Of a stretch of 64,000 nt of DNA, positions 21,880-58,751 are shown one piece after another. The position numbers and the translations under genes are program-made. The DNA is from an uncultured bacterium (lineage in GTDB: Bacteria; Patescibacteriota; Minisyncoccia; Phycocordibacterales; Phycocordibacteraceae): the NCBI GenBank assembly GCA_963851445.1, contig CAWKPH010000002.1, positions 102,183 to 166,182 of the forward strand. Reading direction: 5' to 3'. Each line of letters starts with the position of its first letter. The stretch's first letter is position 1. The notes under the pieces were generated by a model, which was not told the DNA's origin, did no database searches, and saw nothing but the letters and a program-made list of their open reading frames with translations.

Positions 21880-23130
21880 ATGGACGTCGTAAAGGACCTA
21901 CAAGCGCGAGGGCTTGTTGAGCATAGCTCAGCTGAACTTGAGAAAATCCTCTCAAAAAGGCGTGTTGTATACTTTGGCGTGGATCCCTCGGCAGACTCTC
22001 TACAAATAGGGAATTTGGCAGCGCTACTCATACTTAAGCGTCTTGCGGTCGCCGGTCATAAAATCATTCTTCTCGTGGGTGGCGGCACAGGCATGATAGG
22101 AGACCCTCGAGAGGCTGGTGAGCGCCCACTTGTTGATAAAAAAGTGGTTGAGCGAAATAAAAAAATCATAAGAAACCAAATGCAGGACATCATTGGTACG
22201 CGTGTACAACTCGTAGATAACGCTGACTGGCTTCTTAAACTTAAATTTGTCGACTTTCTTCGCGATATTGGAAAGCATTTTACAGTGAACGAACTTATAA
22301 AACGCGACACAATTAAGCGTCGTCTTGAAACACCAGATGAAAGTATTTCGTACACTGAATTTGCGTACTCCCTACTGCAGGGCTATGACTTTATGGTTTT
22401 GAATGAAAAATATGGATGTGATTTACAAATAGGTGGATCAGATCAGTGGACGAACATTCTTTCAGGTGTCGAACTTATTCGCAGAAAACTTGGTAGGGAA
22501 GCATTTGCTCTTACCTGCCCGCTCGTCACGGATGCTAGCGGAAAAAAATTTGGTAAATCGGAAGGAAATGCGGTATGGCTTGATCCAAATAAAACCTCTC
22601 CTTTTAATTTCTTTCAATTCTGGTTGAATCAGCCTGACAAGGGAATTGCGAAATATTTCAAATTCTATACGTTTATGCAAACTACTGAAATTGATCTCCT
22701 CATTGAGATGCATAATCGCAATCCAGAAAAACGTGAGGCTCAGAAGATGCTCGCGCTATCCGTAACCGAAATTGTGCATGGAAAAGAGGCAGCCATGAAT
22801 GCAGCGGCAGTATCCGAGGTGCTCTTTGGCAAAAAACGTCTCTCAGAACTTACTAAAGATGAACAGGCTGCCTTACTGCGTGAAGCGCCCGTGTTTGGCA
22901 TTGAACGAAGCAAGATAGAAGCAGAGCATCCGATCATCGACGTCTTAGTCGACAGTGGCCTTGTGAATTCTAAATCTGATGCTCGCCGGCTTATCGAAGG
23001 AAAGGGAATTTCAATTAATGATGACCTGATTGAATCCCTTGATTCAAAGCTTACACTTCTCAATTTTATGCCCACTCTAGCGCTCCTCAAGCGTGGTAAA
23101 CAAGTTGTTGTGCTCTCGATTGAAAAATAA
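21880..23130 (+). CDS. tyrS: Tyrosyl-tRNA synthetase
   Basis: HIGH-type motif (LQIGNL), KFGKS (KMSKS variant), C-terminal S4-like domain. Confidence 0.9.
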   Translation: MDVVKDLQARGLVEHSSAELEKILSKRRVVYFGVDPSADSLQIGNLAALLILKRLAVAGHKIILLVGGGTGMIGDPREAGERPLVDKKVVERNKKIIRNQMQDIIGTRVQLVDNADWLLKLKFVDFLRDIGKHFTVNELIKRDTIKRRLETPDESISYTEFAYSLLQGYDFMVLNEKYGCDLQIGGSDQWTNILSGVELIRRKLGREAFALTCPLVTDASGKKFGKSEGNAVWLDPNKTSPFNFFQFWLNQPDKGIAKYFKFYTFMQTTEIDLLIEMHNRNPEKREAQKMLALSVTEIVHGKEAAMNAAAVSEVLFGKKRLSELTKDEQAALLREAPVFGIERSKIEAEHPIIDVLVDSGLVNSKSDARRLIEGKGISINDDLIESLDSKLTLLNFMPTLALLKRGKQVVVLSIEK

Positions 23131-23158
23131 GCTTCAAGCCGCTATAGTGCGTAGTATT

Positions 23159-23244
23159 GCGTCGGTGGTAGAGTGGTCAATTACAACAGGCTGTAAACCT
23201 GTCGGCTTCGGCCTACGGAGGTTCGAATCCTTCCCGGCGCACCA
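23159..23244 (+). tRNA. tRNA-Tyr (anticodon GTA), CCA encoded
   Basis: Cloverleaf with 7-bp acceptor (one G-U pair), anticodon loop CTGTAAA, long variable arm CGGCTTCGGCCTACG, T-loop GGTTCGAATCC, 3' ACCA. Lies immediately downstream of tyrS. Confidence 0.85.
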
Positions 23245-23275
23245 TATCTGTTAGTGAAACGCAGCATGGTATCGT

Positions 23276-24250
23276 ATGCAAATGAACCAAAGACCAATCT
23301 TGCTATCAGGAATCAAGCCAACCGGCGATCTCCATATTGGCAATTATTTTGGCGCTATGCGCCAGCAAGTTGAATTATTCAAATCAGAGAAATATCACTG
23401 CTATATCATGGTGGCTGACTACCACGCTCTTACCACTGTCCAGAACGCTGCTGAAATGTTGCAGCTTACACTTGATCTAGCAACTGCCTATATGGCCATA
23501 GGACTTGATCCGGAAGGATTGGTTCTCTTTAAACAGTCTGATGTTCCTTCTCACACTGAACTTACCTGGATATTCGATACCATTACAACAATGCCTTATC
23601 TAATGCGTGCCCATGCATTCAAAGATGCCGAGGCTAAGAATAAAGAGATAAGTGTTGGTGCTTTCAATTATCCAATGCTTATGGCAGCTGACATTCTCCT
23701 CTATGATACTGCAATTGTGCCAGTTGGGCAGGATCAGAAACAGCACATTGAATACGCACGCGATACTGCTGAGAAATTCAATCGTATTTTTGCAAAAGAT
23801 TCCGAAGGCATTTTCGCAATGCCAGAGCCATATATCATGCCTGAAGTCGCTATAGTTGCGGGCACTGATGGCAGAAAAATGAGTAAAAGCTACGGAAATG
23901 TAATTCCGCTCTTTGCCTCACGAGACGAAATTACAAAGGCGGTCATGAGCATTGTGACCGATTCATCAGGCGAAAGACCTGAGAATGTATACAAGATTCA
24001 TAATCTTCTTAAAACTGATGCAGAGCTTAAGCCGCTCTATAAGGAGCACAAAGGAAAATATAAAGAATTGAAACAGGCACTTATTGATGACTTAGACGAG
24101 TTCATTGGTCCGTTTCGAGAAAAATACGAGGAATTGAAGAACGAACCTGAGTTGGTGCAAGAGGTTCTTAGAAAGGGCGCTGCAACCGCCAGAGAGAAAG
24201 CGGAAGCAAAAATGATTAAGGTGCGAAAGGCAATTGGGGTCACTGAATAG
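23276..24250 (+). CDS. trpS: Tryptophanyl-tRNA synthetase
   Basis: Class I HIGH motif (GDLHIGNY) and KMSKS. Confidence 0.9.
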   Translation: MQMNQRPILLSGIKPTGDLHIGNYFGAMRQQVELFKSEKYHCYIMVADYHALTTVQNAAEMLQLTLDLATAYMAIGLDPEGLVLFKQSDVPSHTELTWIFDTITTMPYLMRAHAFKDAEAKNKEISVGAFNYPMLMAADILLYDTAIVPVGQDQKQHIEYARDTAEKFNRIFAKDSEGIFAMPEPYIMPEVAIVAGTDGRKMSKSYGNVIPLFASRDEITKAVMSIVTDSSGERPENVYKIHNLLKTDAELKPLYKEHKGKYKELKQALIDDLDEFIGPFREKYEELKNEPELVQEVLRKGAATAREKAEAKMIKVRKAIGVTE

Positions 24251-39743: not shown

Positions 39744-40160
39744 TTATTTCGCCTTCGAAGTCCGCACCGCCTTGAGGTATCTGCTATCTTCGCCGCGGGC
39801 CTCGCGATTCTTCGCGAGCTTCCGGCGTGCCGTGGCGACCTCGTCGGACGTACGCGCCCGGCGAACCACCTTCTTGGGAGGCAGCAGGATGTCATAGCCC
39901 TGCTGCGTATTGACCGAGATCTTGCCGGCCATGCTGGCCCGGAACAGAAGCACTTCGGCGCCTTTGGCGTAGGGACCTTTCCAGGCCACCTCGTCGAGGA
40001 GTCGATTGATGACCTCATCGATGACGCCCTGGTCTTTCGTGGCATGGGGGCCGAAAAGCTCGTAGGGGGCCATCGTCTGGACGACCCACTGGGAGCCCAT
40101 CTCACGCGGGGTGAGTTTGGTCTCGATGGGGTCGGTAGTGGGTACGTACGCGAGTGACAT
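39744..40160 (-). CDS. Hypothetical protein (GC-rich, Lys-rich C-terminus)
   Basis: 138-aa ORF in a visibly GC-rich segment. No recognisable motif. Confidence 0.45.
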   Translation of the reverse strand: MSLAYVPTTDPIETKLTPREMGSQWVVQTMAPYELFGPHATKDQGVIDEVINRLLDEVAWKGPYAKGAEVLLFRASMAGKISVNTQQGYDILLPPKKVVRRARTSDEVATARRKLAKNREARGEDSRYLKAVRTSKAK

Positions 40161-40320: not shown

Positions 40321-41439
40321 CTATTCGCCAGGAGGCTCAAGCGTCATATCATTCATTGGGCCGAAGATGGTTTTACGTTCACCATCCTCAACGCGCCCGA
40401 CTTCGTGGGCTTCGTATCCCGTTATTTGTGCGATTCGTATGACCCTCTCGACTTCGCTTGCCGGAACGAAGATATAGTAACCGATGCCCCAGTTAAAGGT
40501 CGTCACGCAATCCCTGTCCGAGACACCAATTTCCTGCATGAAGCGGAAGAGCGTCGGCACTTCGGGCCAGGTATGGATGCGATAGGTGTGCGGGCGATGG
40601 TCAAACGAGATTTTAGCCACACCACTTCCAGTTCCCGGCAGAAGTGCGTGAATATCAATTTCCATCGTGAGCAGAGTTTCGACGAGTCTCACATAGCAGC
40701 GTGTCGGGATAAGCGCCTCTTCACCGAGCGTATTGCCGTTGGGCAATTTTGTAAGGAATTTGTCGGGCAACCCCAGTGCTCGTTTGATGACAAGCGATAC
40801 GCCATTAGCGTGAAGTCCGGAAGAGGTAACGCCAACGATTCGATCGCCTGTCGAAAGCTTCGTGCCATCGATAAGATTCCTGTTCGGCGCGATGAGGCCG
40901 GTGACACAACCACTAAGTGATGGGGCACTTGTGACGGGTTCCTGCGCTCGAATCAGATATTTGAGTGCAGGGGATTCACCAGCGACGAGCGCCATACCGG
41001 ACATCTCGCAGGCATCGTAGAAACCCTGAGCAAGATCTTCGGCGCGCTTTACATCCTGGAACCATTCGCTGTCTCCTGCAGCCACCTCGTCGACGTACGC
41101 AACAGGCATGGCGCCTTGAGCGATACAATCGTTGACCGCCATCATCGCGGTATCGATGCCGATGCCGCGATAGCGAGGATTGCCAGTCCCGTCGAATTGA
41201 TACATCCATTCGGCAATCCAGTTCTTGTTGCCGAGACCTTCGAGGGTATTGCACCAAGAATGAGAATGCCCGCCTTCGTACCGGAAGATTCCTCCATGCG
41301 AATGGAGCGCACTTGTATTTATGAACACCTGGCGGGCCCTCGGGAAGTGGGCAGTACGCCTGGCGGTCGCGATCATCGCAGCCTTGAAGGGCCCGATTTT
41401 GTCATAATCGACTCCTGCGTTCGCATATTCGCCTTGCAT
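40321..41439 (-). CDS. purM: Phosphoribosylformylglycinamidine cyclo-ligase (AIR synthetase)
   Basis: N-terminal YANAGVDYDKIGPF (YKDAGVDID-like) and C-terminal SSGLHANGVSLVIK (GLHSNGFSLVRK-like). PurM-length. Confidence 0.85.
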   Translation of the reverse strand: MQGEYANAGVDYDKIGPFKAAMIATARRTAHFPRARQVFINTSALHSHGGIFRYEGGHSHSWCNTLEGLGNKNWIAEWMYQFDGTGNPRYRGIGIDTAMMAVNDCIAQGAMPVAYVDEVAAGDSEWFQDVKRAEDLAQGFYDACEMSGMALVAGESPALKYLIRAQEPVTSAPSLSGCVTGLIAPNRNLIDGTKLSTGDRIVGVTSSGLHANGVSLVIKRALGLPDKFLTKLPNGNTLGEEALIPTRCYVRLVETLLTMEIDIHALLPGTGSGVAKISFDHRPHTYRIHTWPEVPTLFRFMQEIGVSDRDCVTTFNWGIGYYIFVPASEVERVIRIAQITGYEAHEVGRVEDGERKTIFGPMNDMTLEPPGE

Positions 41440-41613
41440 TTTCGCTCTCCTCTAGGGGTTGGTGGACTAATTTGTGCGATCTTGGCTTATCCTACAGAAG
41501 CTCACAAAGATAACAAGCGATTAACGTTTATCCATGGTAGGTTATTCCTAGACGAGCACCTTTGCGGGTGCTTTGTTGTTTGTCAATCTGCAGCCAATAG
41601 AGGAGATGCTGCC

Positions 41614-42645
41614 ATGTTGATCCGACTCTATCGTCGACTCCCTGGTCAGTACGACCTCGAGGAATGCTTCTATTTTGAATTCGCGGAGATGCCCGAACCT
41701 TCTGAGCTTGCGCTCTTGAGGTGGCTCATCGCTGAATCTTCGGAAGATGTCAGACATCATTCACACCTTCAAGGTGACGTGGTCGAGGTCGGTCCGCGGC
41801 TGTCAGTCGAGACCCCATTCTCTTCGAATGCGGTCGGCATCTGTCAGTCGATGGGCGTTCCCGTGCTACGGATCGAAAAATCTACACGGTATCCGGCTCA
41901 CAAGCCTGACTCTGTGAAGATCGATCCGCTCACGCAAGAAATCTATCCCGAGCCACTCACTACGTTTGGTTTGGGACACGACCCCGAACCCGTGCTCATC
42001 ATTCCGATTCTCCAAGACGGTGAGAAGGTGCTCGTCGCCGCAAACATCGTTCTGGGTCTTGGTATGGATACGGAAGACATCAAGTACTACACTCAGATGT
42101 TCCTCGGGCTCGGCCGCAACCCAACCGATGTCGAATTATTCCAGATCGGCAACGGAAACTCCGAACATAGTCGTCACCATTTTTTCCGCGGCATTCAAAT
42201 TATCGACGGTGTCCGGATGTCTGAGAGCTTGATGGATATTGTGAAAGCGGCCTGGAAAGCAAATCCGAACAATAGCCTGGTCGCGTTCCATGACAACAGC
42301 GGCGTGATTGAGGGGTGCGAGGTGCCCGTTCTGCTTCCGAGTAGACCTGGTCATCCTTCCTCCTTCTACATCGCGCCTATCATGCTCCACAAAACTATCA
42401 CCGCGGAGACACACAACCATCCAACGCTCATCGCACCATTCCCCGGTGCCAACACTGGCAGTGGGGGACGAATTCGCGATAACCGTGCGGTCGGTCGACA
42501 TCTCGCTATGATGCCGCATCCTGAACGGTGTTTCCTCCCGTGGCAGTGGCCATGGATGCCTGAAACGTGGCGTGCCACAATGAAGGTCTCTCCATGGTTG
42601 CAGATGTTCCAAAATGCGCGTACCTGGTGCCTTGAGCACTCGTAA
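41614..42645 (+). pseudogene. purL: FGAM synthase (purL, large type), in-frame internal deletion remnant
   Basis: The N-terminal ~330 aa is collinear with large PurL through NSEHSRHHFF and ETHNHPTLIAPFPGANTGSGGRIRD. It is then fused directly to the extreme C-terminus (MMPHPERCF...SPWLQMFQNARTW), so about 900 aa are missing. The 41116..41613 part of the track ORF is antisense to purM. Confidence 0.7.
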
Positions 42646-42732
42646 GTGTAAATGCCCCCGTCCGATTCGTTGGACGGGGGTTTCTTTAATAACAGTCGAT
42701 GTACATGAAATTGAAACTGATACACTAACTCT

Positions 42733-43230
42733 ATGCTTATCCTCCTCACGGGTCTTCCTGGTACTGGCAAGAGCACCATAGCGAATCTGCTTGCCGAAAA
42801 AACAGGAGGGTTAGTTATAAACTCAGATACTCTTCGTAAGGAGTTATTTCCAGTTAAAAGAACCTACTCTTCGATTGAAACTGGTATCGTCATTCAGGAA
42901 ACCGAGCGACTCGTTAGAGAAGCTCTCTTAGAAAACAAGACCGTCATTCTCGATGCGCTGTTCACTAAACAGGATGCACGCGATAAATATCAAAAATTGG
43001 CTCAAGAGTTGAAGGTTAGTTTTAAAGTGATTCTTGTCGGGGCACCTGAATCTCTTATCAAAGAGAGGTTGGATGAACGTTCCTTAGTCAATGACTCAAG
43101 TGAAGCAACCTTTGAAATCTATCTTGATAGAAAGAAGCATTTTGAAGCAGTGAATGGGGAACACCTAACTATTACAAACGAGGGAAGCCTCGAAGACCTG
43201 CGCACAAAGGTTGATGGTTTGAAAGTATAA
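42733..43230 (+). CDS. P-loop NTPase/kinase (AAA_33 / nucleoside-nucleotide kinase-like)
   Basis: Walker A GLPGTGKST at the N-terminus. 165 aa. Confidence 0.6.
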   Translation: MLILLTGLPGTGKSTIANLLAEKTGGLVINSDTLRKELFPVKRTYSSIETGIVIQETERLVREALLENKTVILDALFTKQDARDKYQKLAQELKVSFKVILVGAPESLIKERLDERSLVNDSSEATFEIYLDRKKHFEAVNGEHLTITNEGSLEDLRTKVDGLKV

Positions 43231-43267
43231 AAAGAAACCACCTCCTTCGCACGAGACGAAGGAGGTG
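43225..43267. terminator. Bidirectional terminator between convergent genes
   Basis: GTATAAAAAG-AAA-CCACCTCCTTCG...CGAAGGAGGTG. Read on the - strand it is hairpin + TTTCTTTTTATAC. Confidence 0.55.
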
Positions 43268-43299: not shown

Positions 43300-43686
43300 T
43301 TACTTCAGCTCCGCGGGCGGCGGTGCAACCTCGCACATTCCGCCCTCGCTTCCTGGCTCATCCTGCGCCCGCATGAGTCCCGTGCAGGCAAAAGGGAGAG
43401 AAGGCACCGGCGTCGATGAGTTGACGCTGGTGTCGAAGACGGCGCCGTGGACGACGTCGTACGTCGAGTGGGTGCCACTGGAACTCGTCACGTTGATGGT
43501 GAGGGTGCAGGGGTCGAAGCGGTTTTGGCATGCGCCGAGGATGAACGCGTCCGTGGCAGCTGTCTCGGCCGCGGCTCGGGCTGCGGTGGCAACCTTGGTG
43601 GCTTGGTAGCTTTCGATCGAAAAGCCGCCCGCCCCGCCGACGATGACCCCGATCACGAGGGCTGCAGCGATATTTCGGTTATTCAT
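43300..43686 (-). CDS. Hypothetical secreted/membrane-anchored protein (GC-rich)
   Basis: Start set at MNNRNIAAALVIGVIVGG (signal/TM). 128 aa. Confidence 0.4.
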   Translation of the reverse strand: MNNRNIAAALVIGVIVGGAGGFSIESYQATKVATAARAAAETAATDAFILGACQNRFDPCTLTINVTSSSGTHSTYDVVHGAVFDTSVNSSTPVPSLPFACTGLMRAQDEPGSEGGMCEVAPPPAELK

Positions 43687-43805
43687 CTGGAAACCTCTTT
43701 CTGGTGGGAACAAAAAATACTTCAAAAACAAGTTAACATGAATGTATAAAATTGTCAAGTTATCGACAACCCGAGAGCGGCTTTGGTTGTAATAAAAGAG
43801 AAATG

Positions 43806-43878: not shown

Positions 43879-44403
43879 CTAGGCGAAGAGTAGTACACCT
43901 CGCTCTTCGAGCATCTGTCGATGCTTAGCCATAAATTCCCGACTCCGTACCAGCTCGTAAAATTTACCGACGGTGAAGAAAGTTGGTTCCTCACCTTCAT
44001 TCTCAGGGTGATATGAGTTCATCCAGTCACGTTCAGATTCGGTTATGCTTGCGATGAACAGAATGTCCCAGTACGGGCCGTCACGCCCATGCCGCTGCCA
44101 GCTCCCTGCGTATTCCAATTGCTCAGGGGTGGCATGAATACCTGTTTCGCCCTCAAGCTCCCTTAGGGCAGTTTGAAGCGGATTTTCATGTGGCTTTTTG
44201 TGCCCGGCCGCGAGCTTGTACTTCGGGTCGGGCCGCTCTGGTTCGATGACGAGTACGTACCCGCAGGGTAGAAAACTGGTCTCCTCCTCGGATATGACCC
44301 CCAGAGGCGAAGAGCGGTTGTCCGGGTAGACCCGGACAAATATAAGAGAACTCCAGGCATCCTCTGGGCGGATGCCATAGCTCTCATAATCAAAGTTAGT
44401 CAC
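43879..44403 (-). CDS. NUDIX hydrolase
   Basis: Nudix box GHKKPHENPLQTALRELEGETGI. Confidence 0.75.
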   Translation of the reverse strand: MTNFDYESYGIRPEDAWSSLIFVRVYPDNRSSPLGVISEEETSFLPCGYVLVIEPERPDPKYKLAAGHKKPHENPLQTALRELEGETGIHATPEQLEYAGSWQRHGRDGPYWDILFIASITESERDWMNSYHPENEGEEPTFFTVGKFYELVRSREFMAKHRQMLEERGVLLFA

Positions 44404-46679: not shown

Positions 46680-47612
46680 ATGGGGCTCGAAATAGTCATT
46701 GCTACTGCAATTGTATTGTTTCTCGTTTTGATTTTTTCACACATTTTGAGTCGGAAGAAGAAGCCCACAAAAAGCTCATCCGGCCAACTTGAGCCGTACG
46801 TTCAACGTGCTGAACTTGCGCCTCTTCCGCCACCCCGAGTTCTGGCATCGGCGTCCGCACCTGCTGCCCCGGCGATTTCACTGAACGAGGAACCATCCAC
46901 CAAGTCTGATGTGACCGAACAGGAATTGAGAAATCGTCTCTTCCGCGCAACAACGGAGGAGGAGTGTGCCGAGATCTACCACCAAGCCCCTTACGGGAGT
47001 GCTCTCGAGCGTGATGCCGTGAAGCGTCTCGACGGCTTCCTGCTGCAGCGTCTTGCAGCAGCCACTACGGTGGATGAGTGCGAGGAGATATGGAAAGATC
47101 ACCTCTCGGACGACAGCTCCATCGAAACTAGGGTTGACGACATGATCATTGCAATCCTCACGGGCGATCTCGCAACCGCAACGACGGTGGATGAGTGCGA
47201 GGAAATCTACGAACGCATTCCCAGCGACAACTTCGAGGAAAAGGGAAGTCTGGGCAAAAGCGTTGTCCTCAAAATGCTTGAACTTTCGACGACTAACGAG
47301 ATGTGCATCGATCTTTTCAACTACCTCGAAAATGACGAGATCGACAACGAGTTGTATGACAAGATTCTTCGAAAGGCGCTCGAGCTTGCCGAAACTTCGG
47401 ACGAATGTGGCGAAGTTGAAGCTCACTCATCGGAAGATTTTGGACCAGACGAGGATGAAGTTGGCCAACGCAAAGTCGAACTGGCGGAAACGCTCGAAGA
47501 ATGTATCGACATCTGGGAAGCCTGCGACGACACTGACAGTGTTGTGTATCGGGCAGCAATCTGCAAAGCGGCTGATATGATCCGAGCTGAGCAGGCAAAT
47601 ACAAAACAGTAA
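46680..47612 (+). CDS. Membrane-anchored acidic repeat protein (TT-x-DEC-EEI-Y/W repeats)
   Basis: N-terminal TM helix followed by about 6 imperfect ~30-aa repeats. Each carries an ATTVDECEEIW/Y-like Cys-containing box. Confidence 0.5.
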   Translation: MGLEIVIATAIVLFLVLIFSHILSRKKKPTKSSSGQLEPYVQRAELAPLPPPRVLASASAPAAPAISLNEEPSTKSDVTEQELRNRLFRATTEEECAEIYHQAPYGSALERDAVKRLDGFLLQRLAAATTVDECEEIWKDHLSDDSSIETRVDDMIIAILTGDLATATTVDECEEIYERIPSDNFEEKGSLGKSVVLKMLELSTTNEMCIDLFNYLENDEIDNELYDKILRKALELAETSDECGEVEAHSSEDFGPDEDEVGQRKVELAETLEECIDIWEACDDTDSVVYRAAICKAADMIRAEQANTKQ

Positions 47613-47814: not shown

Positions 47815-49716
47815 ATGCAGCAGTTCATCGACGCGACACTCCCCTGGGGAGGGCTGGCGATCGCCTTACTGGTAATCGTCCTCCTCTGGAGGTTCGTCGC
47901 ACGCCTGTTCGGCGTCATCATCGTCTCCAAGAACCAACTCGCTATCGTCACCAAGAAGTTCCGTCTGTTCGGCGTCAATCGAATCTTGCCTGACGGCAAG
48001 CTGATCGCTCTGAACGGCGAAGCCGGCATCCAGGCCGACACCCTCGCGCCGGGGCTCTATATGGGCTACTGGCCGTGGCAGTACGAGATCGAAATGCGCG
48101 AGGTCATCACCATCGGCGCCGGCCAAGTCGGCGTCGTGGAAGCTCGCGACGGCAAACCGATCACGAACGGCCGCATCTTCGCGAGCCGCGTCGAGTCGGA
48201 CTCGTTCCAGAGCGCTGCTCTCTTTCTCAAAAACGGAGGTCAGCGCGGGCCACAGATCGACATTCTGACTCCAGGAACCTGGCGCATCAATACCCAGCTC
48301 TTCACGGTCAAGCTCGCCGGCGCGGTTCACATTCCCGACAAGATGGTCGGCATCGTGACTACCCAGGACGGCGAGCCTCTCCCGACCGGCGAAATTGCCG
48401 GCAGGGAAGTGCCAGGGCATCACAGCTTCCAAGACGCGCAAGCGTTCGTGGATGCGCGTGGCAACAAGGGTCTCCAGGAGCAGGTGCTCCTCGCGGGCTC
48501 CTACTACCTCAATCCTGACTTTGTCACGGTCGAGGTGGTGCCGATGACCGAAGTTCCCATCGGCTACGTGGGCGTCGTCATCGCCCGTGTCGGCGCCGCT
48601 CCTTCGGCCTCAGAACAGGAAGATGGGGTTCAGGCCGGACACGCCAACATCGTCCGCAAGGGCGAGAAGGGCGTGTGGGATACCCCATACGATCCGGGAC
48701 TCTATCCTATCAACCCGGACACGCACGTGGTCAGGCTCGTTCCGACGACGAACATCGTTCTGCAGTGGGCCAATACGAAATCCGCTGCACACGATCTCGA
48801 CAAGGAGCTTTCGCCGATCACCGTGCGTTCGGGCGACGGCTTCACGTTCAGTCTGGACGTCGGTCAGATGATTCATATCTCGCCGTCGAAGGCCTCAGCG
48901 GTCATCGCCCGGTTCGGGAGCATGGAGAATCTGGTCACACAAGTTCTGGAGCCCCTCGTCGGGAACTACTTCAGGATCAGCGCCCAGAAGTCGGACGTCA
49001 TCGAGTTCCTGCGGAATCGTTCAGAACGTCAGAGCGAGGCCAACCAGGCCATCGTCACGGCGCTTGCTGGACACCACGTGGAGGCAGGCGATACGTTCAT
49101 CGGCGACATCGTTCCTCCGGCGGAACTGATGGCTACGCTCACCGCCCGAAAGGTCGCTGAGCAGCAAACCATCACGTACGGCATCGAAAAGGATGCGGAG
49201 ACCGCTCGCCAGGATCTGACCGAGGCTACTGCTTTGGCCGACACTCGTGCGTCTGTGGTTACGGCCCAGCGCGGCGTGGAAATCGCCGAGCTTGACGCCC
49301 AGTCCGCGGTGAAGAAGGCGGGTGGTCAAGGACAGTCGATGATCATCGTCGCCGACGCCAACGCCCACGTCACGAAAGTGACCGGCGAAGCCGAAGCCGG
49401 CAAGATCCAAGCCATCGGCACCGCCGAGGCCTCGGTTCAGACGGCTAAGGTGGAGAGTATCGGCGCTGAGCCCTACGCTCGGATCATGGTGGCCACGCAA
49501 CTTGCCGAACACGGGATCAAACTCGTGCCGGAAATCATGGTCGCTGGTGGTGGCGATGCACAAGGCAGTGGCGGCATCATCGCCGCCCTGATCGGCACTA
49601 TGCTGAAGGACAGGCTTGCTGAGCGCCCTGGCTCCGCTTCGACTTCCGAACCTGCTCCGGCAGCTTCGATCGCCCCAGCGACGCCCGCCAGTGCCGACAG
49701 GTCCACGGGCAACTAA
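47815..49716 (+). CDS. Flotillin-like SPFH/Band-7 protein (very GC-rich)
   Basis: N-terminal TM, SPFH domain, then an Ala/Glu-rich coiled coil (EA repeats). G+C visibly far above the window average. Confidence 0.8.
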   Translation: MQQFIDATLPWGGLAIALLVIVLLWRFVARLFGVIIVSKNQLAIVTKKFRLFGVNRILPDGKLIALNGEAGIQADTLAPGLYMGYWPWQYEIEMREVITIGAGQVGVVEARDGKPITNGRIFASRVESDSFQSAALFLKNGGQRGPQIDILTPGTWRINTQLFTVKLAGAVHIPDKMVGIVTTQDGEPLPTGEIAGREVPGHHSFQDAQAFVDARGNKGLQEQVLLAGSYYLNPDFVTVEVVPMTEVPIGYVGVVIARVGAAPSASEQEDGVQAGHANIVRKGEKGVWDTPYDPGLYPINPDTHVVRLVPTTNIVLQWANTKSAAHDLDKELSPITVRSGDGFTFSLDVGQMIHISPSKASAVIARFGSMENLVTQVLEPLVGNYFRISAQKSDVIEFLRNRSERQSEANQAIVTALAGHHVEAGDTFIGDIVPPAELMATLTARKVAEQQTITYGIEKDAETARQDLTEATALADTRASVVTAQRGVEIAELDAQSAVKKAGGQGQSMIIVADANAHVTKVTGEAEAGKIQAIGTAEASVQTAKVESIGAEPYARIMVATQLAEHGIKLVPEIMVAGGGDAQGSGGIIAALIGTMLKDRLAERPGSASTSEPAPAASIAPATPASADRSTGN

Positions 49717-51992: not shown

Positions 51993-52078
51993 TCGTGTAT
52001 GAGGTTAGAACCTATGTATAAAAAGAAAACCACCCCTCCGTCGAAACGAAGAAGTGATCTTCGAATCGGTGAGGTGGC
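51993..52078 (+). repeat. Array repeat R7 (motif + long hairpin)
   Basis: TCGTGTATGAGGTTAGAACCTATGTATAAAAAGAAAACC followed by CCACCCCTCCG...CGGTGAGGTGG. Lies 3' of the receiver-domain gene. Confidence 0.6.
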
Positions 52079-52080
52079 AG

Positions 52081-52461
52081 TTATGTGAGAATTCTCTTGA
52101 TGGTCGAGGCGAGCTCGGAATCATCACCGGGGATATCTTTATGGACGTAGGTCATCCACGGGAATACCTTAAGCAACATCTCCAGCTCTTTTGGAGCCTC
52201 CGACGTGTGCAATATCGTCGGCGGTCTCTCACTCAGACGACGGTTCATGTACTGAAGCAACTCAATCCCGGCATCAGAAATGCGATGCATGTTGTTGTCG
52301 GTGATCACAAGAGAAAAAGTCTCATTCTCAAGCTGTTGAGTAGCTTGATGAAGATCTTTCGCCATGACAGGGATGTGCCCGCAGGCTGTAACCGCGGCGC
52401 ATGCCCGGTCCAGCCAATGCTGCTCATCGTCAACGACGAGAACGTGTTTTGGAACGGTCAT
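52081..52461 (-). CDS. Stand-alone response-regulator receiver domain (CheY-like)
   Basis: VLVVDDE, ITDNNM (phospho-acceptor Asp), conserved Thr/Lys positions. 126 aa with no output domain. Confidence 0.7.
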   Translation of the reverse strand: MTVPKHVLVVDDEQHWLDRACAAVTACGHIPVMAKDLHQATQQLENETFSLVITDNNMHRISDAGIELLQYMNRRLSERPPTILHTSEAPKELEMLLKVFPWMTYVHKDIPGDDSELASTIKRILT

Positions 52462-52533
52462 GATTTCCTCGCAAGTTCAGAGTAACCTTGTATATAATAC
52501 ATATATCTTTGCATTTGTCAAATCAGGCTTCAT

Positions 52534-52593
52534 CTCTTAGAGGACGTTAGAACGTGAGTGGTATGAAAAGAGTCCTGGGTTTTGTCCAGGACT
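52534..52593 (+). repeat. Array repeat R8 (motif + hairpin)
   Basis: CTCTTAGAGGACGTTAGAACGTGAGTGGTATGAAAAGAG followed by AGTCCTGG-GTTTTG-TCCAGGACT. Lies 3' of purD. Confidence 0.6.
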
Positions 52594-52606
52594 CAGTAGT
52601 GGAACC

Positions 52607-53887
52607 TCACTCGACATCTTTGGCGATATCGGTGCGGTTCTCCTTGTTATTGTAGTAGATTTGATCAGCGGCGGCATATGCGGTCTTTCGCGCGTCGGCA
52701 ATGGCTGGACCCATACCAACAACACTGAAGACACGGCCGCCGGTGGTCTTGGTAAGGAACGAAAGCGGTTTAGTACCAGCATGCAGGATGGTGGCATTCG
52801 GAAACTCGGTTGTGTCACCCGATACCCACATACCCGTCTCGTATTTGCCAGGATATCCTCTGGAAGCCAGGACAACACATACGGCTGCCTCAGGACTGAC
52901 TTCAAGAGGAGGAAGTTCGGCGAGACCTCCAACCTCAAGCGTCCCCAACATGTACGGAAGGATGTCGGAAGTCGTGCGCGCGAGAATCACCTGGGTTTCA
53001 GGGTCGCCGAAGCGCACATTGAACTCCATCAATTTCGGACCCTTTGCGGTCAGCATCAAGCCTGCGTAGAGCAAGCCTCGAAAGGGAAGGCTCTCCTGAT
53101 GTTTGAATGCAAGAAGCACACGAAGGATAATCTCGTTCTTGATACGCTCAAGGAGTGCGTCATCGACATCGGACAACGGTGAGTATGAACCCATGCCGCC
53201 CGTGTTTGGACCTTCGTCCCCGTCATACGCCCGTTTGTAGTCACGCGCTGGGGGAAGAAGAATCGCATTCTCACCATCACAGAATGCCATGACAGAGCAC
53301 TCGAGCCCCTCAAGACGTTCTTCGACGACAATGACATCACCAGCCTTTCCATGCACGCCGTTCACAAGCATGTCTTCAGCCGCATCGATAGCTTGTGCGT
53401 GGGACTTTGCAACTACAACCCCTTTCCCCGCACAAAGACCATCAGCCTTTATTACGGGGGGAGTATCGAAAGAATGAATGGCCCGAAGTGCGTCCTCCAT
53501 TGAACTAGCGACATGAAACGGTGCTGTTGGAATCCAGTAAGCTTTGCACAGACGCTTCGTGAAGGCCTTGCTACCTTCAAGAACTGCCATTCTTGCGGTC
53601 GGTCCGAACGCCGCAATGCCATGTTCGGCAAGACGATCGACGAGACCATTCACTAGCGGGACTTCAGGACCAATGACGACCAGGTCGACGCTCTCGTCGA
53701 GCGCGAGCTGTACGATGCCGTCCATGTCGGTAACTGCCACGTCGTGGATCTGTCCGCTACGGAAGCCACCATTGCCAGGACTGCAGAGGACTCTACTGAC
53801 TTTCGGACTCGTCTCCAGCTTTTTTGCGAGCGCATGTTCACGCGCTCCGCTGCCGATGATGAGGATCGTCATGTCTTCAGTACGCAT
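52607..53887 (-). CDS. purD: Phosphoribosylamine--glycine ligase
   Basis: ILIIGSGAREHALA N-terminus, ATP-grasp core, full-length PurD collinearity. Confidence 0.9.
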   Translation of the reverse strand: MRTEDMTILIIGSGAREHALAKKLETSPKVSRVLCSPGNGGFRSGQIHDVAVTDMDGIVQLALDESVDLVVIGPEVPLVNGLVDRLAEHGIAAFGPTARMAVLEGSKAFTKRLCKAYWIPTAPFHVASSMEDALRAIHSFDTPPVIKADGLCAGKGVVVAKSHAQAIDAAEDMLVNGVHGKAGDVIVVEERLEGLECSVMAFCDGENAILLPPARDYKRAYDGDEGPNTGGMGSYSPLSDVDDALLERIKNEIILRVLLAFKHQESLPFRGLLYAGLMLTAKGPKLMEFNVRFGDPETQVILARTTSDILPYMLGTLEVGGLAELPPLEVSPEAAVCVVLASRGYPGKYETGMWVSGDTTEFPNATILHAGTKPLSFLTKTTGGRVFSVVGMGPAIADARKTAYAAADQIYYNNKENRTDIAKDVE

Positions 53888-53967
53888 TGTTGCCTCCTTA
53901 AGGCTCTTAACTCGGTTGGTACATCTCCAAGTAACCTACGCTAAGGAGTGTATAAGTCAAAACTGTA

Positions 53968-54010
53968 GCTGTTAGAGGAAGCTAGAACGTGCTTTATGCA
54001 AAAGGCTATA
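53968..54010 (+). repeat. Array repeat R9 (variant)
   Basis: GTTAGAGGAAGCTAGAACGTGCTTTATGCAAAAGG in the divergent region between purD and the NUDIX gene. Confidence 0.45.
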
Positions 54011-54018
54011 CTTAAAAA

Positions 54019-54435
54019 ATGGATTTCAGTGGCACTAAAATAGCTCTCCTATACGACGACAAACTAGTTATGTCGCTTCGCGATAATAAACCTGGTCTTC
54101 GCTTTGCCAACATGTGGGACTTTGCAGGGGGAGGTAGAGAAGGGGAGGAAACTCCTATAGAGTGCTCAGTACGAGAAATAGAAGAAGAGCTTGGCATAAC
54201 GCTAAAGCCAGAATCATTTATCTGGCAGAAAGAATATCCAGCCATGCATGATCCAAGCCTCACAGCTCACTTCCTAGTGGCACGAGTTTCAAAAGCTGAA
54301 GTGGATGCTATTACGTTTGGAGACGAAGGACAGCGATGGGATCTGATGGATATAAAAACCTTCTTTGACTCAGAAGATGTAGTACCTCTTCTAAAGGGAA
54401 GATTTCAGGACTATTTGGATCAAGCACCTTCCTAA
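54019..54435 (+). CDS. NUDIX hydrolase
   Basis: Nudix box GGGREGEETPIECSVREIEEELGI. Confidence 0.75.
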   Translation: MDFSGTKIALLYDDKLVMSLRDNKPGLRFANMWDFAGGGREGEETPIECSVREIEEELGITLKPESFIWQKEYPAMHDPSLTAHFLVARVSKAEVDAITFGDEGQRWDLMDIKTFFDSEDVVPLLKGRFQDYLDQAPS

Positions 54436-54471
54436 ACTTGCTTGGAAACATGCACAACGTTCATATGTTCA

Positions 54472-54522
54472 CCGTTAAGATGAGAACCTGTTTGGTATGA
54501 AAAAGACGCATCCGAAGATGCG
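54472..54522 (+). repeat. Array repeat R10 (motif + hairpin)
   Basis: CCGTTAAGATGAGAACCTGTTTGGTATGAAAAAGAC followed by GCGCATC-CGAA-GATGCGC. Confidence 0.5.
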
Positions 54523-54794
54523 CCGAAAGGACGGGGGAAGGATGGAAAGACTGCGTCCCGCCCCCTGGTGTCATAATCGAGAAGAAGCAGAATAACTGTG
54601 CCAGCAGTCCTCTCATTTGAGAGACGTTCCTTGGGAGACGAAACGTATCCTGTTCTCGATCAAAGCGCCGGAATGACCGACACCTGGCAGGTTTGACAAC
54701 CTATCTTTCGCCCAACAGAGAAAGACTATCAAACCCACACTTGGTGTCAATTGCTCTCTGTTGGAGAGCCGGATCTGTTTGTAAGAAAAGCCGC

Positions 54795-55121
54795 CTACGC
54801 TCCAGTTGGAGAGGCGGCTTGCGACCGAACAGTGACCCACGAGAGAGGAGGATGCTCCCGTTCTAGGGAGAGAAATTCTTTATTACGATAGCCACATCCG
54901 CAAAGTAGGTACACTGAGCCACACACCACAGAAATGACCCACTCATGACTGAAGAGCGCGGCAATACCCATGAGTAGAAATGCCAGTCCCCAAAACCAAA
55001 TCAACTTGCGGTATTTATAGATATAGAGTTCCTTGGGAGTACTCGGCTCTTCATAGGACGTAAAGAACGGAATGAAGATCCAGAATAGCCACTTGAGGAA
55101 GAGAACCGAGATTTTGCGCAT
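54795..55121 (-). CDS. Hypothetical membrane protein
   Basis: 108 aa with 2-3 TM helices. Stop lies within the terminator hairpin AAGCCGCCTACGCTCCAGTTGGAGAGGCGGCTT. Confidence 0.4.
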   Translation of the reverse strand: MRKISVLFLKWLFWIFIPFFTSYEEPSTPKELYIYKYRKLIWFWGLAFLLMGIAALFSHEWVISVVCGSVYLLCGCGYRNKEFLSLEREHPPLSWVTVRSQAASPTGA

Positions 55122-55132
55122 TGCATCTCCTC

Positions 55133-55507
55133 TCAGATTATGAGCTTCGAACCTTCACCTCTCCAGAACCCCTGCGCGGGATTGAATGGATAGATGAAGC
55201 ACTCGACGGTTGCTTTCGGGAACAGCTGTCCCACGGCCATTCCCAAGTGCCACGCCAGTCGTTCACGAACGCTCGCAGTACGTTCCGGTTTCTCGAAAAG
55301 GCCGGTGACTTCCACGATGATTTCCGACCCGAGGCCGTATTTCATCAGATCAGGTGGGAACAGACAGGTCATGTCGTTCTCGTCCTTAAACCCGAGCTCC
55401 GTTACGCCGACGACTGCGGCTACGATGGCTTGATGCAGCTCGTTAAGCTTATTTTCGCGTTTCCCCTCCTCTATATTAGGGAGGCACCATACTTTGATGA
55501 CGGGCAT
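55133..55507 (-). CDS. Putative tautomerase-superfamily protein
   Basis: Internal start gives an MPVIKVW... N-terminus (Pro1 after Met removal), the hallmark of 4-OT/MIF tautomerases. Weak call. Confidence 0.35.
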   Translation of the reverse strand: MPVIKVWCLPNIEEGKRENKLNELHQAIVAAVVGVTELGFKDENDMTCLFPPDLMKYGLGSEIIVEVTGLFEKPERTASVRERLAWHLGMAVGQLFPKATVECFIYPFNPAQGFWRGEGSKLII

Positions 55508-55562
55508 AGCCACGTCTCCTCTCTGTTGATCCGAGGGCACTATATCACATAAACACAGGGCG

Positions 55563-56399
55563 TCATTTTAGAGCATAGAAATCGGCGAAGTACTCCTGGT
55601 ACCACGGCACATCTTTAAAGATGTCGAATTTAAGTAGAAAACCACCTGTTCTGATAATGGCAAAAGGAAGAGTAGCAATGAGAATAATGAGAAAGACATA
55701 AAAGATACTCGGCACGTGGAGGTATGAAGCTACTAATACAGCAAGCGAGATTGCTACTGTTTCAATCCCTACTCGTACGAAATAGAAGACGAAAAGACGC
55801 GAAAAATTCTTCCACCGATAAGCGATACGCACCATGTCGAGTTTCTGGGCTGTATTCACATGTGAGTTACAAATGACGGAGCCTGTCGCAAGAAGCATAT
55901 ACCACGTTGGATAGCCAACAGTCACCAGGACGACAAGCAAGAGAGCGCCAGTAAGGCCGGTCAAACCGAGCGGGAAAACAACAAGGTATACAAGGCCGAG
56001 AAAGACAAAGGCAAAGATAGCACTCACCATCACTTCGAGGATAAAATACTGAACGGCTCTAAGCGTAAAGACGGCGCGTAGTCCTCGTAGGAGCGGACGA
56101 TCTTTTTTGGCAAAGATAGTGAAATTCGCTTCAACTTCAAAAATCGTAATGGCAGCAGCACCAATGAGGCTCAGCGAGTCGAGGAATATTCCAAGCGGAG
56201 TAAGAAGCAGATGAATTAATAACAGGAGCGTATTCCATATCGAACTCGCCTGAGTCCAAGCCACATGAACGTTTTGAAGTATCGAACTGCTCCCCGCGAA
56301 CTGGTTATAGACAATTAAGATGATGACGAGAACCAGAATCACGGGATTGCGAACGGCCCACGAAAGACCATTCTTAAGGAGATGCCAAATCCATTGCAT
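55563..56399 (-). CDS. Hypothetical multi-pass membrane protein
   Basis: About 8 TM helices. Start trimmed from the track ORF (to 56561) to an internal Met to avoid overlap with the + strand gene. Confidence 0.45.
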   Translation of the reverse strand: MQWIWHLLKNGLSWAVRNPVILVLVIILIVYNQFAGSSSILQNVHVAWTQASSIWNTLLLLIHLLLTPLGIFLDSLSLIGAAAITIFEVEANFTIFAKKDRPLLRGLRAVFTLRAVQYFILEVMVSAIFAFVFLGLVYLVVFPLGLTGLTGALLLVVLVTVGYPTWYMLLATGSVICNSHVNTAQKLDMVRIAYRWKNFSRLFVFYFVRVGIETVAISLAVLVASYLHVPSIFYVFLIILIATLPFAIIRTGGFLLKFDIFKDVPWYQEYFADFYALK

Positions 56400-56433
56400 G
56401 TTGTGCAGTATAGCTCGTTGGTATATTTTCTCT

Positions 56434-56796
56434 ATGCCCGATCTCGACGACCTCCTTAAGGCGTATGAAAAAGCGAATAACTCCCACGACTGGAAGCAGG
56501 TAGAACCTTTTGTCCATTCCAATGCCTCATACTTCTTCACCGATGGAACCTTCAATGGCATCGAAGAAATTAAAGAGGCAGTTACCGCTACCTTTGAGAA
56601 AATCCAAGAGGAGACTTATACCGTGAGCAACATACGCTGGGTTGTTGCGGACGATACGGTGGCTGTCTGCACATACGATTTTCACTGGAAGGGAGTAGTC
56701 GAAGGGAAACCCAAAGAGAGTAGTGGTAGAGGAACGAATGTGTGGGTGAATCAAGAAAAGGGTTGGCAGATTATTCATGAGCATTTGAGTGCGTAG
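56434..56796 (+). CDS. SnoaL/NTF2-like (DUF4440-type) protein
   Basis: C-terminal GRGTNVWVNQEKGWQIIHEHLS is typical of NTF2-like/ketosteroid-isomerase-like folds. Confidence 0.55.
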   Translation: MPDLDDLLKAYEKANNSHDWKQVEPFVHSNASYFFTDGTFNGIEEIKEAVTATFEKIQEETYTVSNIRWVVADDTVAVCTYDFHWKGVVEGKPKESSGRGTNVWVNQEKGWQIIHEHLSA

Positions 56797-56808
56797 GATA
56801 GCTATCTC

Positions 56809-57416
56809 ATGATAAAGGCTATTATTTTCGATTCAGATGGCATGCTTACTCTCGATACGAGATTCAGTTCTGTGTACGCTAATGAATACGGTATCTCAGT
56901 CGATGAAATGACCCCCTTCTTTGTGGGTCCTTTCAAAGATTGCTTGGTCGGTAAAGCTGACCTCAAAGAAGAACTGCAGAAAGGGTGGCTTGCCAAGTGG
57001 GGTTGGGATAAATCTGCTGATGAGTTATTGAAATATTGGTTCTCCGTAGGCAGTGCTCCTGATCCTGCAATTCTCGCCACTATTCTTGAGTTGCGAGATA
57101 GAGGCATCATTTGCGTGCTTGCAACTAATCAAGAAAAGTACCGTACCGACCACATGCTCAAAGAATTCGGCTACGCGGAGGTGTTTGATAAGGTTTTCTC
57201 CTCTGCCTATGTCGGTCACAAGAAGCCATCACGCGAGTTCTTTGACGAAGTGATGAGCTATCTTCAAAGCAAAGATCGACTATCACGAAAGAAGAAGTAA
57301 TGTTTTGGGATGACGATATTGGGAATGTTGAAGGAGCTAAAGAATTTGGCTTTGATGCGAACCAGTTTCTTGATGTTGAGAAGTACGAACAAACAATAAA
57401 TTCAAGAGCTAACTGA
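56809..57416 (+). pseudogene. HAD-superfamily hydrolase, apparently frameshifted
   Basis: Motif I IFDSDGML, motif II LATNQ and motif III Lys (HKKP) lie in frame 1, which ends at 57300. Motif IV EEVMFWDDDIGNVEGAKEFG continues in another frame from about 57279, implying a 1-nt indel near 57270-57280. Confidence 0.5.
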
Positions 57417-57417
57417 T

Positions 57418-57738
57418 ATGGAAAAACGATACAAGATTGTCGTCTACGTTCCTGAAAGCCATGCAGACAAACTCCGTGAAGCAATGGGTATCGCGGAAGC
57501 AGGGAAGATAGGTAACTATTCTCATTGTACCTTCAGCATCAAAGGCACCGGTCGTTTTAAGCCTCAGGAAGACTCACACCCGACGATTGGAGAAGTTGGA
57601 AAGCTTGAGGAAGTCTCTGAGGAACGCATTGAAACAGTATGCGAAGGTAGCAAGCTCCAAGAAATACTGAGAGCGATTCGTAAGGTGCATCCGTATGAGG
57701 AACCCGCGACCGATGTATATCTGCTTGAAAACATATGA
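57418..57738 (+). CDS. CutA/PII-like small protein (tentative)
   Basis: 106 aa. N-terminal beta-strand YKIVVYVPESHADKL and C-terminal HPYEEP resemble the CutA1 HPYEVPE motif. Confidence 0.35.
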   Translation: MEKRYKIVVYVPESHADKLREAMGIAEAGKIGNYSHCTFSIKGTGRFKPQEDSHPTIGEVGKLEEVSEERIETVCEGSKLQEILRAIRKVHPYEEPATDVYLLENI

Positions 57739-58310
57739 ACACAACCTGCATCATCATCCATGGCTGTCCTTCAAACGTCGAGAAAGCCATGGACCCCGAG
57801 ACACGGACATACGACAAGCACTGGATTCCATGGACGAAGAAAACTCTAACAGAGCTCGGCATCCCCACTGAAACCCCACTCATGCCTGATCCATGGGAAC
57901 CCTCGTATGAGAAGTTCAAAGCAGAGTTCGAGAAATACGAAGTAAACGAAGCAAGTATTCTCATAGGCCATAGCTGTGGGACAACGTTTCTTCTTCGATG
58001 GCTTGGGGAGTCAAAGCAGAAGATCGCCAAACTCATTCTTGTTGCACCATGGGCTATTGCTGATAAGGATGACGAAGCTCGCCGCAAGTTCTACGAACAT
58101 CCAATTGATCCATCTATCAAAGAAAGAGTCGGAGAAATTGTTCTTTTTACTGCAGACGACGAAGACCCCGATGGCAAAGAGAGTCTCAAGATAATTCATG
58201 ACGTTATAGGTGGCAAAATCATCGAACTCCCTCACCATGGCCACTACACCATGGATGATATGGGAACAGTGGAGTTTCCCGAGCTTATTAAAGAAGTTGT
58301 AGAAGTCTAA
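57735..58310 (+). CDS. Alpha/beta-fold serine hydrolase (RBBP9/YdeN-like)
   Basis: GHSCG nucleophile elbow with downstream Asp/His. 191 aa. Confidence 0.65.
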   Translation: MNTTCIIIHGCPSNVEKAMDPETRTYDKHWIPWTKKTLTELGIPTETPLMPDPWEPSYEKFKAEFEKYEVNEASILIGHSCGTTFLLRWLGESKQKIAKLILVAPWAIADKDDEARRKFYEHPIDPSIKERVGEIVLFTADDEDPDGKESLKIIHDVIGGKIIELPHHGHYTMDDMGTVEFPELIKEVVEV

Positions 58311-58751
58311 ATATGAGCAGCCAACCACAAAACGCACCACAGGAGGTACTCGATGACGGTAGCGGCGGGACCACAGTCATTGATCCTGCGGCGCAGGTTC
58401 AGGGTGTAGCGGCCAATGCCGCAGCCGCTGGCCAATTCATCGCCGCCATGGCCGGATTTGCTGGAATGCATGGGAGCGGTCTGGCCGGCAGCTCTTTCGA
58501 GACCTGGCGCGGCGTGCAAGTCGGCCTGGCGGTGCCGAGGATTCAGGAAGCCTGAAGCTTCCCTCAAAACGGCGGTGCTCCTGCCCGGATTCGTCTGAAC
58601 TCTTCGGTGACTCGGATGTTGAGCGGTTGTCCCCGCCGCATCACTGACGAGTTCCTACTCTCGTCTTTGCCATTCTCTCCGTTATACAATAATCCAGCGA
58701 ATGGTATAATAAAATATAGTGAAAGAAAAAAACAGTCTCGCGTTCTATCTG

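Follow-up and report, generated by a model that had tools for sequence, protein, structure and literature searches.

The large, single-chain form of phosphoribosylformylglycinamidine (FGAM) synthase (PurL/PFAS, EC 6.3.5.3) is represented by the protein models TIGR01735 and PRK05297 and by the structures 1T3T and 9N9W. Its N-terminal domain resembles a dimer of PurS, the small subunit of the three-protein form of the enzyme. Herpesviruses offer a precedent for the reuse of catalytically dead PurL homologues, i.e., the tegument vFGARAT proteins (TIGR01739), which are full-length. In full-length PurL, the N-terminal domain bridges the glutaminase and synthetase sites (PMC7124931), and candidate phyla radiation (CPR) bacteria often lack nucleotide synthesis (PMC7304191, PMC9530719). 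Here we analyze a purL gene, designated purL', in a 64-kb stretch of the metagenome-derived contig CAWKPH010000002.1; the whole stretch of DNA that was analyzed is referred to below as the window. Compared to the large FGAM synthases, purL' is collinear at the N-terminal domain, the linker, the start of the synthetase, and the last ~50 residues, and it keeps the motifs NSEHSRH, ETHNHP, GGRIRD, MPHPER, and SPWxxxFxNA, but it is without ~917 residues, which comprise nearly the entire synthetase core plus the glutaminase region ending just short of MPHPER. We consider it very probable that purL' is the dead remnant of a single-chain large purL, generated by one recent, microhomology-mediated, in-frame deletion. 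As such, it is a new instance of the well-known decay of genes in reduced genomes, an ordinary pseudogene.

The purL' gene and its retained parts

To place purL' among its relatives, we scanned for purL with one genome per species, which gave 80 purL loci. The closest full-length large PurL, a protein of 1258 aa, is encoded in a Patescibacteria metagenome-assembled genome (MAG; JAZKIS010000009, locus L001). The closest loci, with their identities, were L001 (69%), the Kaiserbacteria L002 (62%) and L004 (56%), and L003 (57%) and L005 (54%), both labelled Saccharibacteria. Over the retained columns, these full-length Patescibacteria purL genes (L001 to L005) are 58-71% identical to purL', and they possess the same leader hairpin; unlike purL', they are intact. 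Two divergent genes lie within positions 40321-42645 of the window, purM on the - strand and the purL remnant on the + strand, the latter with the following features.

41535-41583, + strand: conserved purL leader found by sequence comparison, with an extended -10-like TGnTAnnnT (41535-41543), a hairpin GCACC-loop-GGTGC (41554-41573), and a T-rich tract
41614-42645, + strand: purL' coding sequence (343 aa), in-frame deletion remnant of a large FGAM synthase (PurL), from its start and ribosome-binding site (RBS), Pfam, TIGR01735, and collinear ends
41614-42498, + strand: retained N part, residues 1-295, with the N-terminal (PurS-like) domain, the linker, and the first ~100 synthetase residues including ETHNHP and GGRIRD, from the L001 alignment and structures
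42493-42498, + strand: deletion junction, GGT CGA (Gly-Arg), microhomology common to both flanks, from comparison with L001
42499-42642, + strand: retained C-terminal tail of 48 residues, HLAMMPHPER...SPWLQMFQNARTWCLEHS, with MPHPER kept and without the Cys nucleophile, from the L001 alignment and GATase_5
42654-42681, + strand: intrinsic-terminator-like hairpin 9 nt past the purL' stop, with a 12-bp stem (8 GC pairs) followed by TTCTTTAATA

The true start of purL' is the ATG at 41614, which is preceded by an AGAGGAG RBS at 41599-41605 and matches the start of every full-length relative in the alignment. A 509-aa open reading frame (ORF) from 41116 was rejected as the gene, as it is over-extended; its first 166 codons are antisense to the 5' end of purM and run through the purL leader. 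When the 343-aa product was compared with Pfam, matches were obtained to FGAR-AT_N (PF18076, E 9.1e-8), to FGAR-AT_linker (PF18072, E 1.7e-11), and to positions 216-260 only of the 260 positions of GATase_5, with no match to AIRS or AIRS_C; the initial annotation of this DNA had proposed that mapping these domains would locate the deletion, and they do flank it. Scores against the full-length models were correspondingly low, i.e., 286.3 bits on TIGR01735 (NCBIfam), about a quarter of its cut-off of 1123.05, and 261.7 bits on PRK05297, with a cut-off of 783. Against known structures, the N part aligned with chain positions 75-333 of 1t3t_A (Salmonella PurL) and 39-343 of 9n9w_A (human PFAS), and the tail with 1239-1298 of 6jt8_A (the same Salmonella protein as 1t3t_A) and 1266-1336 of 9n9w_A.

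An in-frame deletion of 917 codons

By tblastn, residues 1-293 of L001 PurL matched window positions 41614-42498 (69% identity, E 4e-121), and residues 1209-1258 matched positions 42493-42642 (78% identity, E 8e-25), a two-piece match that is far beyond chance. Both pieces share one frame and overlap at the Gly-Arg codons at 42493-42498. Residues 294-1208 of L001 are unmatched, leaving 917 codons (~2.75 kb) gone from purL', and the same tblastn search found no match to this remainder of L001 PurL anywhere in the window. As a reference for the undeleted state, all of the 15 Patescibacteria purL loci inspected contain open, uninterrupted frames of 1263-1363 codons; these frames end ...DGRHLAMMPHPER...SPWLxMFQNA..., and their tail is the tail found in the window.

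The initial annotation had described purL as gutted by an in-frame internal deletion of ~900 codons, and tblastn against L001, Pfam, and the alignment all confirm this, the exact loss being 917 codons. The collinearity it reported for the N part also holds, but over 295 residues and not ~330; similarly, the jump to the C terminus does occur without a change of frame, but the tail comprises 48-50 residues instead of ~45. Each of the motifs it had quoted is present in purL', with NSEHSRHHFF at 42157, ETHNHP at 42406, SGGRIRD at 42460, and MMPHPER at 42508.

The sequence of the junction is informative as to how the deletion may have formed. In the window, it reads GCG GTC GGT CGA / CAT CTC (A V G R / H L), and the corresponding sites of L001 read GCG GTC GGA CGA AGC (A V G R S) on the N side and GAC GGA CGG CAT CTC (D G R H L) on the C side. 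L001 therefore has at the break a direct repeat of 5-6 nt, GGACG(R), encoding Gly-Arg in equal phase on both sides, and every full-length relative in the alignment has Gly-Arg at each of the two gap edges. A short direct repeat at a break is the signature of slippage or of illegitimate recombination between short repeats. We propose that one illegitimate-recombination or replication-slippage event would have joined the two short direct repeats (GGNCGN, Gly-Arg) and removed the 917 codons, the frame being kept because the two Gly-Arg repeats share codon phase. Step 4 of de novo purine synthesis would then be broken at this locus with purM (step 5) and purD (step 2) staying intact, and the retained codons, the native leader, the RBS, and the terminator would have yet to degrade.

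Predicted consequences for the product

Almost all of the PurM-like synthetase core was lost in the deletion, as was the part of the glutaminase domain that precedes MPHPER, with the region of the nucleophile Cys. What is left of the glutaminase includes MPHPER, which we take to contain the His and Glu of the PurL glutaminase triad. Judging from these losses in the sequence, the predicted 343-aa product cannot be an FGAM synthase, that is, it cannot convert formylglycinamide ribonucleotide (FGAR) to FGAM, and function would probably be lost in vivo. The initial annotation had reached the same view, citing the missing synthetase core and glutaminase Cys, and it is borne out by Pfam, TIGR01735, and the alignments. 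Both breakpoints lie inside domains and not at the linker boundary, and a stub of ~100 residues from a broken synthetase subdomain is retained.

To evaluate what these residues might still form, an AlphaFold2 model of purL' was built from 51 sequences; the alignment is shallow over the tail, and the model is weak evidence there. The predicted local distance difference test (pLDDT) score, averaged in 10-residue blocks, was 77-98 for residues 1-180, intermediate from there up to position 262, and under 50 over residues 264-343, a stretch that takes in the ETHNHP/GGRIRD stub and the entire tail. Thus, neither folding nor docking is predicted for the broken synthetase piece and the tail. When the model was used as a Foldseek query, only PurL structures were found. 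The part of the model that folds well is the N domain, the counterpart of PurS; no significant fold match of purL' to PurS (2cuw, E 1.9) and no Pfam match to PurS were obtained, and the window ORFs scanned included neither a purQ nor a small purL partner.

Short PurL-like proteins in other genomes

We examined whether purL' belongs to a family of short proteins by a HMMER scan of 1.84 billion representative proteins, which returned 2886 matches, of which the best 150 were assessed. Among these 150, proteins with both ends were nearly all 1200-1400 aa long, and the only comparable prokaryotic fusion of N and C parts was P0022, a 323-aa protein from a 1300-nt contig of Logan SRR23086392 (L081, 210-1181). 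Together with the full-length frames at 15 of 15 Patescibacteria loci, this single comparable fusion indicates that purL' is a deletion derivative and not a member of a natural short PurL-like family, as the initial annotation had held.

Like purL', P0022 has its N domain and linker fused in frame to the final ~50 residues, which start at (D)G-[RH]-HLAMMPHPER. It is ~40% identical to the window protein and ~50% identical to the nearest full-length proteins among the fetched loci (Actinomycetota, Acidobacteria, and unclassified MAGs). The break on its N side falls ~48 residues earlier than that of the window, before ETHNHP; its C side begins (P)DGHHLAMM, 0-4 codons off the window's break. Of 69 highly conserved sites, 7 deviate from the consensus in P0022, which puts it beyond the 90th percentile for the full-length genes. 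By its sequence, P0022 is evidently an independent, older, decaying remnant in an unrelated lineage. The near-coincident breaks on the C side may stem from the GC-rich Gly-Arg codons there, which could serve well as a microhomology partner.

The remaining candidates were rejected. In P0132 and P0146, an N part is indeed joined to the C-terminal tail, but these two look like eukaryote-like gene models with internal gaps, and P0195, P0203, P0244, P0247, and P0252 have no tail. P0007 and P0012, considered as members of a short family, are halves of purL genes split into adjacent frames by a frameshift (370+904 aa and 582+690 aa).

Such splits, each by a single frameshift, were seen in two other Patescibacteria assemblies from the protein search, at L166 (3472-7285, 370+904 aa) and L167 (6001-9827, 582+690 aa), where purL is disrupted, as it is in the window, but with all domains present in two adjacent frames and nothing deleted. 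They may reflect real decay or long-read indel error; in L167, purN adjoins purL.

Age of the deletion

We next examined the retained codons for signs of relaxed selection. Over the 343 retained columns of a 69-sequence alignment, purL' is off the consensus at one of the 85 sites with a conservation of 95% or more; full-length genes have a median of 0 such departures, with several at 2-9. Tajima relative-rate counts for the window against L001 were balanced with 8 of 8 outgroups (24/26, 23/20, 22/19, 11/21, 16/22, 14/19, 18/15, and 14/20). Relaxed selection on the retained codons was thus not detected by either the Tajima counts or the conserved-site test. The ratio of nonsynonymous to synonymous substitution rates (dN/dS) against L001 was set aside as uninformative, since synonymous sites would be saturated at 69% amino acid identity.

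Because the retained parts show no extra divergence, and the leader, RBS, and terminator are intact, the deletion looks recent relative to the split from L001, or else the remnant is constrained. We favor recency because the junction occurs in no other genome or metagenome contig, no such family was found, and ~100 residues of a broken domain are still carried. The junction peptide RAVGRHLA[IM]MPHPE, searched as a degenerate DNA pattern, gave 0 matches in JGI metagenome contigs. Similarly, a protein-based scan of metagenome contigs revealed no fusion of N and C parts; the relatives found were at most 58% identical, and none extended beyond query residue ~322.

Alternative explanations

Several observations speak against purL' being a dead deletion remnant. 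The assembled contig is the sole source of the junction, and the survey for purL covered the 64-kb window, so that a second purL (large, or as purS/purQ/small purL) may exist elsewhere in the genome. The remnant exhibits no frameshift, stop, or rate acceleration, which purifying selection on a useful product predicts equally well. Lastly, P0022 arose independently and yet retains a 50-residue tail that is nearly the same, which would be strange if breakpoints fell at random.

A first alternative is that the deletion is an artefact, i.e., a chimeric join made during amplification or assembly, or a minority allele that coexists with a full-length purL in a mixed population. The metagenomic origin of the contig leaves room for this, and exact look-ups revealed no second assembly of the junction: the contig index gave nothing for the products of purL', purM, the kinase gene, and rpoA, and the protein collection contains RpoA, PurD, and the kinase of this genome but neither the purL' product nor PurM. 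However, assemblers do not make joins on an overlap of 5-6 nt, the join is exactly in frame with its flanks in direct orientation, and the missing 2.75 kb has no related sequence in the window. Furthermore, an independent Logan assembly of ERR11630394 is 100% identical to window positions 52039-58451, showing that the assembly is sound nearby. We therefore regard an artefact or minority allele as unlikely.

A second alternative is that purL' encodes a working mini-protein, comprising the PurS-like N domain and linker and maybe the tail, which is selected as a scaffold or regulator and expressed from a native purine-responsive leader. Consistent with this, the frame, start, RBS, leader, and terminator are all intact, the rate is not accelerated, and the consensus is broken at just one of the 85 conserved sites; independent folding of the N domain and linker is predicted with confidence, P0022 combines a similar N part with a ~50-residue tail in another lineage, and the N-terminal domain of full-length PurL has a bridging role (PMC7124931). 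On the other hand, the breakpoints fall within domains and leave the protein to carry the ~100 residues of broken synthetase subdomain, residues 264-343, including the whole tail, have pLDDT values below 50, and the scan of 1.84 billion representatives revealed no such family. P0022 itself differs in its junction on the N side and has excess changes at conserved sites, and the junction peptide is unique to this genome in the scans of JGI metagenome contigs. Given these data, we think it very unlikely that purL' is a working mini-protein. Equally hard to credit is the more specific proposal that the cell produces and retains the 343-aa protein to act as a scaffold or regulator, e.g., with PurM or another amidotransferase, with P0022 the outcome of convergent selection. 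As for co-option of the kind known from the herpesvirus vFGARAT proteins, the tail of purL' matches the end of the TIGR01739 model (E 1.1e-9), but nothing in purL' points to such a role.

Finally, we find it scarcely credible that purL' is a PurL-like paralogue that is short by nature and coexists with another, complete purL and a full pathway outside the window. A word-indexed protein search, whose listing contains only proteins under 600 aa, does show many PurL-like proteins of 300-600 aa, and the window is only 64 kb of the genome, but many of these proteins are annotated as partial and end with their contigs, the two short matches examined are halves of a frameshift-split complete purL, the relatives closest in sequence are PurL proteins of ordinary full length, and both ends of the remnant best match the two ends of one orthologue, L001, as expected of a deletion and not of an old paralogue.

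Leader and terminator

With its leader intact, purL' retains the native control region of the gene. The leader is near-identical between the window and L001 (L001 2430-2480), though the proteins are only 69% identical. After its T-tract, the window and L001 have TTGTCAAT, and other relatives have TTGACAAT. It is recognizable 5' of purL in 11 Patescibacteria loci (L001, L002, L003, L004, L005, L007, L013, L085-L087, and L166), and the N-terminal extension 'HLxGCFVVC' of the protein P0001 is a translated purL leader. In the window, the leader pattern occurs once, with 0 occurrences expected by chance.

The upstream region of purL', including the leader, had no Rfam match, even at E <= 1, and a riboswitch was thus not found. 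The stem sequence is invariant among the relatives and hence offers no covariation, and the hairpin was called terminator-like. In sequence, the leader resembles a promoter-proximal attenuator or a hairpin that binds protein, and it may be specific to purL.

purM and purD

Two further purine genes are found in the window.

40321-41439, - strand: purM (AIR synthetase), 372 aa, apparently intact, from Pfam AIRS and AIRS_C and TIGR00878
52607-53887, - strand: purD (GAR synthetase), intact, at a distance of 10 kb and in another gene neighbourhood, from TIGR00877 and GARS_N, GARS_A, and GARS_C

PurM of the window covers positions 2-331 of the 332 positions of TIGR00878 with 167 bits, under the cut-off of 236; PurM of L001, the neighbour of an intact purL, scores just 178 bits on this model. 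The PurM proteins of the window, L001 (6399-7502), and L004 (128-1183) constitute a divergent subgroup marked by an EGLG[TN]KN motif and an SDWF/SEWF insertion. L001 and L004 PurM are only 33-37% identical to PurM of the window, compared to 58-71% for the adjacent PurL N parts. At conserved sites, window PurM deviates no further than do the proteins of L001 and L004, in a comparison set that is rich in Actinomycetota and thus biased. The divergent purM-purL arrangement recurs in L004, whereas L001 has purL followed by purM. PurD scored 441.6 bits on TIGR00877, with a cut-off of 288, over positions 1-422 of 425. Hence the view that purM and purD look intact, put forward when the region was first annotated, is upheld, with purD well over its cut-off and purM matched end to end and comparable to L001 and L004 PurM.

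The purine genes had also been described as horizontally acquired fragments, and this holds in part. Raised G+C content at third codon positions (GC3; see below) agrees with it, but purD is not a recent arrival. The closest relative found, Ga0558069_0000082 (JGI 3300056753, locus L163, 282.6 kb), has an RpoA 78% identical to that of the window and the same core synteny; on the same contig as RpoA, it encodes a purD that is 73% identical to window purD and adjoins guaA. Since purD is common to both genomes, any transfer of purD predates their split. In Ga0558069_0000082, GC3 is 0.53 for purD and 0.69 for guaA, compared to ~0.40 for the core. In this purD-guaA region (L163 8223-15436), a large serine recombinase (576 aa) is located four genes downstream.

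The purL' locus may mark a step in the loss of purine biosynthesis, and it would offer a clean snapshot of that process, in which the largest purine gene is gone in one step while purM, purD, and the gene's own leader are untouched. Patescibacteria are usually described as lacking nucleotide synthesis; nonetheless, some of their lineages carry an intact large purL, and purM is near it only in some loci (L001, L004, L045, and L059), suggesting that loss is ongoing and patchy. The main value of the finding lies in annotation and pathway reconstruction, as the domain matches would name this ORF 'phosphoribosylformylglycinamidine synthase', wrongly crediting the genome with step 4.

Genomic surroundings

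The first 1-36 kb of the window is a core region with S13-S11-S4-rpoA, L13-S9, grpE-dnaK-dnaJ, aminoacyl-tRNA synthetases, and cell-wall genes. RpoA is ~80% identical to proteins of Pacebacteria and Parcubacteria, which makes the organism a Paceibacteria-like member of the Patescibacteria. GC3 of the core genes is 0.33-0.45, and higher values were obtained for the following genes.

40321-41439, - strand: purM, GC3 0.59
41614-42645, + strand: purL', GC3 0.61
52607-53887, - strand: purD, GC3 0.56
39744-40160: ORF, GC3 0.79
43300-43758, - strand: ORF, GC3 0.71
47815-49716: SPFH gene, GC3 0.76

Positions 39744-64000 form a mosaic in which genes with GC3 of 0.55-0.79, including a NUDIX gene (43879-44403) and several ORFs at 59-64 kb, are set amid genes with host-like values of 0.36-0.45. 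The high GC3 supports a compositionally foreign or mosaic region. For comparison, GC3 of purL in L001-L004 is 0.65-0.73.

The initial annotation had placed purM and purD in separate repeat-bounded modules, which we did not find: repeats in the region are short (21-47 nt), no copy flanks purM-purL', and one lies 30 nt 3' of purD. The repeat motif is intergenic, 33-47 nt long, and consists of TTAGAAC-N7-TGGTAT[AG]AAAAGAG followed by a terminator-like hairpin. Its seven copies (at ~45793, 51526, 52016, 52548, 54483, 59776, and 61309) are all on the + strand, are confined to 43-62 kb, and in most cases follow closely downstream of a - strand gene, resembling the T-run side of a terminator. From their sequence and placement, these repeats look terminator-associated rather than like the ends of mobile elements. 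No transposase or integrase domains were detected among the window ORFs scanned.

Other elements were noted in the window. A perfect hairpin of 11-12 bp with an A-run and a T-run, at 43239-43267, is located between a convergent kinase gene (42733-43230, + strand) and the ORF at 43300-43758 (- strand), with a terminator call on each strand. Three direct repeats of ~39 nt, spaced 114-117 nt apart, are found at 46937-47206 inside the ORF at 46680-47612, which matches no family, and they suggest that its product is internally repetitive. In the core region, tyrS, tRNA-Tyr (23159-23244), and a second class Ib synthetase gene (trpS-like) stand in a row at 21880-24250 on the + strand.

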